Assembly (NCBI GenBank): GCA_038207335.1
Contig: JBBQZX010000016.1
Coordinates: 1 to 64,000, forward strand
DNA: 64,000 bases
Direction: 5' to 3'
Origin: Chthoniobacterales bacterium
GTDB taxonomy: Bacteria; Verrucomicrobiota; Verrucomicrobiia; Chthoniobacterales; Chthoniobacteraceae
Position 1 is the stretch's first letter; every line of letters begins with the position of its first letter. Positions 1-1,631 of the stretch are shown in pieces. The position numbers and the translations under genes were made by a program. Under the pieces are notes generated by a model. It saw only the letters and a list, made by a program, of their open reading frames with translations. It had not been told where the DNA came from and ran no database searches.

Positions 1-53
1 CCGACATCGATCCCAGCGCGGACTTGGGGAGCGGGTTTTGGAGGTTGTTTCAT
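1..53 (-). CDS. IS110-family (DEDD) recombinase/transposase, N-terminal 17 codons only; continues off the left edge
   Basis: The reverse complement of 1-53 reads ATG AAA CAA CCT CCA AAA CCC GCT CCC CAA GTC CGC GCT GGG ATC GAT GTC GG = MKQPPKPAPQVRAGIDV(G). GIDV near the N-terminus matches the first catalytic Asp motif of IS110 RuvC-like domains. The motif alone is not unique (ASKHA/ROK proteins share it), but it lies directly downstream of a bridge-RNA-like region. Too short to appear in the supplied ORF track. Confidence 0.75.
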   Translation of the reverse strand, partial: MKQPPKPAPQVRAGIDV

Positions 54-99
54 GGGCGTTGTTTGGGTTTACTGTGGAGCCATCGGGAAGCCGACTCCG

Positions 100-330
100 T
101 GCAAATGTCCTCGACCGACCTTGTCAATACAGGCTCCCCGCCGCGGCAACGCGGCGGTGGCCTCAGATACTCTCCGGCGTGGACAAAAGAGTCGGGGGAC
201 CGATCTAACGAACAGGGTCGCGGCGGAGCGATCACACCGCCGGGCCCTCAGGCGTCTGCGGCCTCCCGAAAGCGCATGCATCTTCTCCCAAAACCCTTCA
301 CGCTGGCAGCTCGTTTTCGGCATGAAGACG
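100..330 (-). ncRNA. Predicted bridge RNA with target-binding loop (192-269) and donor-binding loop (106-185)
   Basis: Target loop: outer stem 259-269 pairs with 192-202, inner stems 245-248/214-217 and 237-242/221-226. It encloses left guide CAGACGCCT (250-258) and right guide TCGTTAG (205-211) in the context CCG-guide-GAGGG...ACCCTGT-guide-AT. Donor loop: outer stem 181-185/106-110, inner stems 160-163/131-134 and a perfect 8-bp hairpin 138-145/150-157. Its motifs CCGG-AGAGTATCT and TGTATTGACAAGG closely parallel the IS621 donor loop. The 5' and 3' ends are approximate. Confidence 0.8.
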
Positions 331-363
331 AGATACAAGGCGTCGCTACGCGCGTCCCATAAC

Positions 364-978
364 ATGAGAACCATTCTCTTCCTTCTCTGTCCTTTGATCG
401 CCTGCGCTTCCAGCCGGGGCGCGGAGGATCAACCCAAGGGCGATCCGCAGCCACTGGGTCTCACCAAGTTCGACCGAACCATCATCGACGCTCACGAACA
501 AGGCTACCCCATGTCGTGCATCGCGAGTTCAGTGGAGATGCTCCTGAAGCTGCTTGGTCAGGTGCCGAATTCGTATCGCGACCTGCAACTCGCGTGGCGA
601 AACAAGTCTGATGGCTGCTGGCGCGACTTCAACAACAAGACCTTTGCGGGTGTAACCTTCAGGTATCACGAAGGCTACTCGATGGATCAATTGTTCGAAT
701 CGATTGACCGTGAACTCCATGCCGGGCGGTTTGTAGTCGTAGGGCTCCGCAGCCCCGGCGGAACCCACAGTTGGGTAGTCTATGATGAGGACACCAGCGG
801 AGAGTTTCTGGCGATCTCCAAGGACCGAAGCCGCACCATCGAAGAGCGGCACGTCAAGGAGGCTATCATCCGACAGCAAGGTAGCGACCTAGGGACTTAC
901 GAATTTCCTACTTCACCGATGCGCCTCCAGAGCGCGCCACCCCGATTTCAACCCGGACCGCCGGCATTTCAACCGTGA
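364..978 (+). CDS. Cassette 1: secreted papain-fold, C39-like cysteine peptidase (204 aa)
   Basis: The likely start is ATG 364, not the ORF-track start at 52, which lies inside the IS. Signal-peptide-like MRTILFLLCPLIACASSRGA. Motif Q-x5-C (EQGYPMSCIASSVEMLLKLLG) and downstream GTHSWVV...FLAISKD resemble the C39-like catalytic Cys/His arrangement. Confidence 0.65.
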   Translation: MRTILFLLCPLIACASSRGAEDQPKGDPQPLGLTKFDRTIIDAHEQGYPMSCIASSVEMLLKLLGQVPNSYRDLQLAWRNKSDGCWRDFNNKTFAGVTFRYHEGYSMDQLFESIDRELHAGRFVVVGLRSPGGTHSWVVYDEDTSGEFLAISKDRSRTIEERHVKEAIIRQQGSDLGTYEFPTSPMRLQSAPPRFQPGPPAFQP

Positions 979-1050: not shown

Positions 1051-1173
1051 GCCTAACCATGCGCTGCAGCGAACTGCTCCGGGCGTCACGGGACTGCTTC
1101 CACCGCCACCTTGCCGCCTGCCATGCAGCTCCCGCGCCGCCCTCCGCCGTCGCTGAGCTTGGGGTCGTTAGGC
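1051..1173 (+). other. attC recombination site (123 bp), complete
   Basis: R'' GCCTAAC 1051-1057, 5-nt spacer, L'' GCTGCAGC 1063-1070 followed by GAAC. On the other arm: GTC, L' GCTGAGC 1152-1158, 8-nt spacer, R' GTTAGGC 1167-1173. R'' and R' are perfectly complementary, and the L arms pair with two extra unpaired bases, as expected for attC. Confidence 0.92.
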
Positions 1174-1194: not shown

Positions 1195-1554
1195 ATGGAG
1201 CATCATCAGACATACCGTCACGCGAGCAATTCATCCACGCGCTTGCATCCGCTGCCGTTGCTTCTCGTCATTGCGCTTCTGTTTTCCTCCTGCGCGACAA
1301 CACCTCCGCGCCAAGCCACCAAGATCGACATCGAGAGTCTATCCACGCGTGCCATCGCCAAACGCGAGACATGGGTCGGAGCCCCCTATTGTGTTGCCGT
1401 GCAAGACAAATATGACGGGACGTGGCGCGTCGAAGCTCACGCCATCGATCCCACTCACATAGACTGCGGGTGCGTTCTCTTTGTGCCAGGGTCGAGCAGA
1501 GAGATACTTTTCAGTCCTTCGGGGCGCCTTATCAGTTACTTTTCTCCGCAATGA
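1195..1554 (+). CDS. Cassette 2: small putative lipoprotein of unknown function (119 aa)
   Basis: ATG lies 21 nt after R'. Hydrophobic stretch LPLLLVIALLFSSC ends in a lipobox-like Cys. The stop codon is 7 nt before the next R'' box. Confidence 0.7.
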   Translation: MEHHQTYRHASNSSTRLHPLPLLLVIALLFSSCATTPPRQATKIDIESLSTRAIAKRETWVGAPYCVAVQDKYDGTWRVEAHAIDPTHIDCGCVLFVPGSSREILFSPSGRLISYFSPQ

Positions 1555-1561
1555 CCGCAAC

Positions 1562-1631
1562 GCCTAACCATGCGCTGCAGCGAACGGCTCCGGGGTCGGT
1601 GGCAATGTTTGAGAGCTAGGGGACGATGGGG
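1562..1631 (+). other. Second attC: intact left arm, missing or degenerate right arm
   Basis: 1555-1594 matches 1044-1083 at 39 of 40 positions (R'' 1562-1568, L'' 1574-1581). No intact L' or R' follows. 1613-1630 matches 1155-1172 at 14 of 18 positions. Confidence 0.7.

Follow-up and report, generated by a model that had tools for sequence, protein, structure and literature searches.

The stretch of DNA considered here (the window, 64,000 nt) starts at the edge of contig C16 in a 5.17-Mb assembly of 53 contigs. Positions 100-337 of its minus strand represent the left end of an IS110-group element of about 1.33 kb, IS621/ISCro4-like, which is truncated by the contig edge. At positions 1-53, also on the minus strand, lies the 5' part only of an IS110 (DEDD) recombinase gene, cut by this edge, with an ATG at 53 and the translation MKQPPKPAPQVRAGIDV. 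The first-pass annotation had described an ORF starting with GIDV; the ORF is there, its start is the ATG at 53, and GIDV are residues 14-17. Between the element end and the ATG there are 284 non-coding nucleotides (337-54, minus strand), and the layout of positions 100-337, compared with that described in PMC11208158, predicts a bridge RNA. The left end itself, TGTATCTC (330-337, minus strand), combines the donor right half with a weak -10-like hexamer that would belong to a predicted circle-junction promoter. It is followed on the plus strand by the core dinucleotide (338-339) and the target left half (together 338-346), that is, by what is left of an attC R' box and by the beginning of the following cassette.

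Directly behind the insertion sequence, a first cassette ORF (364-978, plus strand) encodes a protein of 204 aa with no Pfam match. A complete and empty attC follows at 1051-1173 (plus strand), with the boxes R'' GCCTAAC, L'' GCTGCAGC, L' GCTGAGC and R' GTTAGGC; the R' box sequence TCGTTAGGCG at 1165-1174, pointed out in the first-pass annotation, belongs to this site. The second cassette ORF (1195-1554, plus strand; 119 aa, no Pfam match) precedes a truncated attC with R'' and L'' only (1562-1594, plus strand), where the array ends. Over 1,562-1,625, this half attC directly abuts a long minus-strand repeat ORF, rich in glycine and threonine, at the ORF's 3' end.

Ends of the element and its recombinase

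The genome to which the window belongs contains three further left ends, all at contig ends (C1, C41 and C22; 98.5-98.9% identical), and one relic on C30. Right ends are found on C36, C29 and C28, where they read AGAGTAT then CT-AACGA, or TT-AACGA on C29; the donor right end that had been predicted by reading the RNA alone is thus present on all three contigs, with a TT core in the case of C29. Among the elements compared, the left non-coding end measures 266-284 nt and the right end 27-39 nt, and the longest exact terminal inverted match is 4-5 nt (terminal 40 nt, 3/3 elements).

Searching the window's own genome for PF01548 gave no match, since the recombinase gene is unassembled there. Related genomes were searched at the DNA level (61 and 151 genomes) and the element was found within the same family. 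One complete relative (L123) has a length of 1,334 bp and the order target half, left end, ORF, right end, attC; its ORF of 342 aa (P0002) carries PF01548 and PF02371, i.e. a DEDD RuvC domain and a Transposase_20 domain with the catalytic serine. The only PDB matches of P0002 are ISCro4 (E 9e-37) and IS621 (E 2e-35), and its residues D19, E67, D110, D113 and S255 align with their catalytic residues. The closest named records to the recombinase come from Chthoniobacterales MAGs, and a phylum-wide search with P0002 at E<=1e-40 found it in 0 of 401 genomes.

The first 17 amino acids encoded in the window are identical to those of P0123 and 88% identical to those of P0013. In sequencing run X1, a contig of 1,281 bp matches window positions 1-273 at 271 positions, continues into the transposase of L155 and finishes with the right end known from the window's own genome, and thereby links the window to an IS110 gene. 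Together with the two Pfam domains of the complete relatives, this bears out the earlier assignment of the ORF leaving the window at position 1 to the IS110 recombinases. The same contig is 14 nt longer than L155 across the aligned gene, and P0123, a protein of 154 aa from a 1,281-bp contig, keeps the DEDD domain (D16, E64, D111 and D114) and is out of frame after residue 146; the C-terminal 37 codons of the recombinase of this lineage are found on C29. The recombinase of the window lineage, judging from these sequences, is therefore probably broken by a frameshift, a difference from IS621, with the window's own copy unassembled at that point. Because the near-identical X1 copy carries the frameshifted gene, the lineage is probably non-autonomous, its copies being now immobile or moved in trans. 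The proposal that this is an RNA-guided recombinase is supported, with the qualification that the enzyme of the window lineage is probably frameshifted.

Several other damaged copies were seen. In L157 (G125:C1), a 57-nt palindromic insert splits the donor-binding loop and the ORF is frameshifted, and the copy on G034:C19 also has a frameshifted ORF. Decayed relics of related IS110 elements lie at G000 C30:33,990-34,400, C28:23,030-23,110 and C6:18,900-19,005; the C30 relic has retained its left end at a GACGC-CT site and lost the guide loops, and of the C28 relic a scrap of tnp and the right end remain, still within an attC. The element was not found in the viral contigs searched, and a metagenome scan with a 16-nt end motif was rejected as giving chance matches, as 0 of 120 loci matched the element by BLAST.

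The predicted bridge RNA

The predicted RNA, read from the minus strand, contains two modules made of a stem, an internal loop and a stem. The target-binding loop (192-269; helices 1-2) carries the left target guide CAGACGCCT at 250-258 and the right target guide at 203-211, composed of TCGTTAG (205-211) and the handshake bases AU (204-203); both guides were re-read at the positions first assigned to them. The donor-binding loop (107-184; helices 3-5, the inner stems recovered by RNAalifold as well) carries the left donor guide AGAGTATCT at 165-173, which is the same as the right end of the element plus the core, and the right donor guide at 118-128, composed of positions 120-128 and the handshake bases GU (119-118). 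Following IS621 numbering, the right donor guide would pair with CT-TGTAT with a 2-nt bulge like that of IS621, and the handshake bases AU and GU, mapped on the numbering used in PMC11208158, are those of wild-type IS621. The inner hairpins of both loops are longer than in IS621. At positions 236 and 243, within the target loop's inner hairpin, the window copy differs from the three other genomic copies and from the X1 contig, and one of these two differences disrupts a pair.

When the non-coding end was shuffled 200,000 times with dinucleotide composition kept, both target-guide words occurred together in 0.023% of the shuffles and all four guide words in none. The stability of the single-sequence fold is ordinary (z -0.72 against shuffles), the minimum-energy fold of the single sequence pairs the two target guides with each other, and an Rfam search of the non-coding region gave no match. 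Structural support comes from covariation in an alignment, built here, of 11 relatives, onto which an IS621-style structure drawn on the window's sequence was projected, a choice that favours this structure: 85.6% of cells are paired, against 77.4% in shuffled alignments and 33-47% when the structure is slid, with 13 compensatory pairs against 7.2 in shuffles. RNAalifold, as an independent prediction, also yields the outer target stem and the inner donor stems. The fit to a bridge-RNA model anticipated by the first-pass annotation is in this way observed as the two-loop layout of IS621. In the RNA libraries of two studies, contigs reach no further than the loop region of related elements (90-95% identity); as they show neither strand nor ends, they were not counted as evidence of expression.

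Across the join of right end and left end, a hexamer starting with TTG stands 17 nt upstream of the left-end hexamer in 6/6 elements checked, and this arrangement would, by analogy with IS621, create a circle-junction promoter predicted to drive the bridge RNA. No circle junction was seen in the contigs examined, to which we attach no weight as evidence. If the element behaves as IS621 does (PMC11208160), its excision would join the ends into a circle and so form both the donor and the junction promoter; the recombinase would then bind the bridge RNA, through which donor and target would be paired, and strands would be exchanged at the CT core with handshake pairing by AU and GU. A recent preprint (10.64898/2026.08.31.748434) makes a case for copy-and-paste and half-match events in IS621, and events of this kind would fit the multiple copies of the element seen here.

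Insertion in the R' box of attC

Insertion sites were examined at 21 anchored loci and at the C30 relic; two loci without a recognisable left end were excluded. There are 18 distinct right junctions in 10 genomes, 15 of which lie in an attC with L' and L'' boxes where expected, and all 15 are located in R'. The core is CT in 17/18 and is followed by AACGA in 17/18, so that the other copies, at the mapped junctions, occupy the TCGTT|AG|GC context foreseen for them. For the window copy, the flank AGGCGTC at 338-344 matches 7 of the 9 left-guide positions, as had been noted. Across 20 left junctions, positions 5-9 of the left target guide match in 19-20 cases, positions 3 and 4 in 13 each, and positions 1 and 2 in only 5 and 7. 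The three right junctions that lack attC hairpin and boxes nevertheless match the guide, and two of them are inside ORFs.

The left guide fits occupied sites more closely than it fits empty attC sites. With a threshold of at least 6/7, this holds for 5/5 occupied against 4/15 empty sites in the window's own genome (p=0.008) and for 17/20 against 7/20 when the family is pooled (p=0.003), among six occupied-versus-empty tests run on genomes that are kin and not independent. Enrichment at positions 3-4 in the pooled family is not significant (7/20 against 3/20, p=0.27; position 3 alone, p=0.11). G100 should not be regarded as an independent genome, because its ends are also present in run X1 and its right end equals that of G000 over 110 nt. 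This identity (L189, on G100:C117, against G000:C36) spans two genera and reflects either recent transfer or shared binning.

In the window's own genome, 11 of the 12 CGCCTAACGA sites are R' boxes of attC (2.9 expected), and the 16 R'' look-alikes in this genome were used by 0/18 junctions. A fully complementary right guide of 7 nt would allow the element to distinguish R' (AACGA) from the look-alike R'' (AACCA). Sequence comparison shows the anatomy of the element, its four guides matching donor and target, its repeated insertion at one position of attC and the covariation of guide and flank in relatives. In our reading, the window contains the left end of an IS621-like IS110 element whose predicted bridge RNA has guides matching its joined ends and the attC R' box, and this RNA likely directs the DEDD recombinase to that box, antisense to the array.

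Two observations on individual loci may be added. L158 (G034:C19) has a right flank, from 1,223, that is not an attC, matches the guide and resembles the attI-like site of the window's own genome; it could be an insertion in attI or a cassette delivered by IntI, and no intI was found beside L158 or elsewhere in genome G034. For L156 and L220 (G028:C25 and C45), one repeat-protein gene is obtained by joining the left flank of one copy to the right flank of the other; this is a single intragenic insertion, with flanks swapped by assembly or by recombination.

The position of the insertion matters for the attC it enters. IntI crosses over where A adjoins C in the AAC triplet of R', within the bottom-strand consensus RYYYAAC, and this triplet is described as the only feature conserved among all attC sites (PMC5027507). 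The core of the insertion sequence lies just 3' of this crossover on the top strand, and the element end turns GTTAGGC into GTTAGAT, which is still GTTRRRY; on the bottom strand, occupied sites read ATCTAAC or ATTTAAC, within the consensus. R'', L'', L', the AAC triplet and RYYYAAC are intact in 3/3 occupied sites of the own genome. Insertion just past the crossover, with GTTRRRY kept, would thus probably leave the upstream attC usable, an outcome that these sequences make somewhat more probable than its opposite. Two outer R-box pairs are lost in occupied sites, where forcing the R box costs 0.2-1.4 kcal/mol (3/3), against no forcing required in the empty ones (11/11), and IntI activity may be reduced by this weakening.

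By the definition of a cassette, the element would stand at the head of the next one. Actual carriage by IntI is, from sequence, conceivable and slightly on the doubtful side. We tentatively propose a wider scenario, to which we give somewhat less than an even chance: the bridge RNA of an IS621-type element has become tuned to a site-sparing spot just past the IntI crossover, where the element's own end rebuilds GTTRRRY; the host integrase would excise, shuffle and spread the element as a passenger of the next cassette, even with a dead recombinase, and its subfamily would have moved on and off this target several times through a few guide bases. If recombination does continue at occupied attC sites, cassette arrays would become carriers of insertion sequences and help them spread, and an intact relative would provide a means of writing into arrays while leaving them undestroyed. 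The same RNA-guided mechanism might instead inactivate the attC and freeze the array, as proposed for the attC-targeting elements of the IS1111 group (hereafter IS1111-attC). The weaker R box speaks for this, as do the 1.3-kb antisense insert that parts the next cassette from upstream promoters, the absence of any match to the sigma-70 consensus in a simple promoter scan of one complete element, and the suggestion in PMC11616780 that ISPa21 immobilises cassettes. With every box, the triplet and the consensus intact in the three occupied sites, and AAC alone being conserved among all attC, inactivation appears unlikely, though it keeps real weight.

Recognition of the site and related elements

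The attC might be found by its structure, as a folded bottom-strand hairpin, or via the integrase, the guide matches being secondary. The target strand is indeed attC's bottom strand, which IntI recombines in its hairpin form (PMC5027507), and 15/18 right junctions are in attC. The three guide-matching junctions without attC hairpin, two of them in ORFs, indicate that recognition appears to be sequence-based, and the near confinement of the guide 10-mer to attC in the own genome (11/12) accounts for the bias towards these sites. Moreover, relatives with the same scaffold enter other sequences that match their own guides, and we regard targeting by structure or integrase as very unlikely.

These relatives, which share donor and scaffold with the window element and have other target guides, come from Acidobacteriota, Latescibacterota and Pseudomonadota. 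Their left target guide matches the flank at 7-8 of 9 positions in 9/10 rows, the tenth row being parsed one base off register, and the right target guide at 6-7 of 7 positions in 9/9 rows that have a right end. Such covariation of guide and flank is consistent with recombination that depends on the guide and can be reprogrammed. An attC R' box is also the site of some relatives whose left guides differ (L143, L252 and L256, and L250 by flank only), and close relatives target palindromic or tandem repeats. In relatives from another phylum with at least 12 copies per genome, guides match tandem heptamer repeats (L255, L263, L268, L271 and L274 in G955; L260, L270 and L273 in G962), and L268 consists of two element copies head to tail.

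The liking of close relatives for palindromic or tandem repeats would also agree with another explanation, in which the repeats of the array are REP-like host repeats rather than integron attC, entered by an ordinary repeat-targeting IS110. No intI was found beside the window's array, and most arrays likewise lack an adjacent one. The repeats, for their part, possess R'', L'', L' and R' boxes, an extrahelical base and a foldable bottom strand, and flank single ORFs; before R' they have a spacer of 7-8 nt, where 5-6 nt is usual (PMC5027507). A rule-based attC caller returned 73 calls, mostly noise, and only those of GTTA type with the L boxes of the family were kept. On C3 of the own genome, repeats of this family stand behind an intact intI (TIGR02249) and an attI-like site, and intI is present in 2/5 related genomes tested. 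On these grounds the REP-like explanation is even less credible than recognition by structure. At G000:C35:49,500-50,015, the 5' region of intI and the attI-like site are present a second time, with a cassette behind them, on a contig where no intI match was found.

In phylogenetic trees, the attC-targeting rows fall within a well-supported clade of elements with a 5' RNA. They do not form one clade, with at least four label changes among 22 rows, the attC labels having been set by hand after the first tree was viewed, and an AU test rejects keeping the seven attC-targeting rows together. Five rows were excluded from the tree (two long branches, one duplicate and two with unknown targets). These data agree both with repeated gain of attC targeting and with an attC target that is ancestral and was lost repeatedly. 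The earlier suggestion that an IS621-like recombinase had independently adopted attC stands for the likeness to IS621; a single clean adoption gives way to switches of targeting within the subfamily. Independence from the IS1111-attC elements is suggested by architecture, guide order and insertion point, and the trees held no IS1111-attC protein.

With IS621 and ISCro4 (PMC11208160, PMC11208158; PDB 8wt6, 9t56) the element shares a DEDD and Tnp recombinase with aligned catalytic residues, a long 5' end with target and donor loops, a CT core (TT once), the 2-nt bulge of the donor guide, the handshake bases and a predicted promoter at the junction of right and left ends. It differs by a protein match to P0002 that is only distant (E about 1e-35), by its target, the R' box of attC, and by its natural right target guide, which has 7 complementary nt where that of wild-type IS621 has 4. 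The IS1111-attC elements (ISKpn4, ISPst6, ISPa21 and ISPa25; PMC11187229), for which Tetu and Holmes 2008 and Post and Hall 2009 are the sources cited, are likewise RNA-guided DEDD elements that target attC antisense to the array. According to PMC11187229, their RNA lies 3' of tnp, with reversed guide order and long subterminal inverted repeats (7-17 bp in IS1111, PMC11208160), and their insertion point is close to the 5' end of attC (PMC3001079); by contrast, the window element has its RNA 5', the IS110-type order with the bottom-strand guide first, no long subterminal repeat and an insertion in R', at the 3' end of attC just 3' of the crossover. Membership of the IS1111-attC group, which the same target class and antisense orientation (PMC3001079) might suggest, is the least probable explanation of all, given the long 5' and short 3' non-coding ends, the 4-5-nt terminal match, the guide order, the insertion point and PDB matches to IS621 and ISCro4.

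Group IIC-attC introns are also mobile, specialised on attC bottom strands and antisense; PMC3001079 describes them as retrohoming ribozymes, with insertion near the 5' end of attC and an outward promoter of their own. A simple consensus scan of a complete IS621-like element found no such promoter. Among the full texts of the literature covered, attC targeting was found only for IS1111 elements and for no IS110-group element with a 5' RNA; ISfinder and the supplements of PMC11208160, outside this scope like most subscription papers, may list such elements. The 'IS110' in attC of PMC11616780 is ISPa21, of the IS1111 group, and the account of Shewanella attC in PMC9229058 reports no IS found. 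In the window element, an RNA-guided mechanism that is already known is combined with a distinct insertion point and with a target for which no published example in the IS110 group was found, and the element represents a third kind of attC-specialised mobile element, after the group IIC introns and the IS1111-attC group. The guide itself spells out the targeting rule, and a 14-bp substrate would allow it to be tested. The natural 7-nt right guide resembles the one engineered into IS621 for specificity, and the subfamily offers a natural reprogramming series, in which one donor and scaffold are combined with many flank-matching target guides (attC, palindromes and tandem heptamer repeats).

In genomes of the same host family, attC sites also contain other, unrelated inverted-repeat elements, inserted in their R'' end (L126:2,770-2,925; L124:2,225-2,352; L240); one such R''-end element is about 150 bp long and has terminal inverted repeats.
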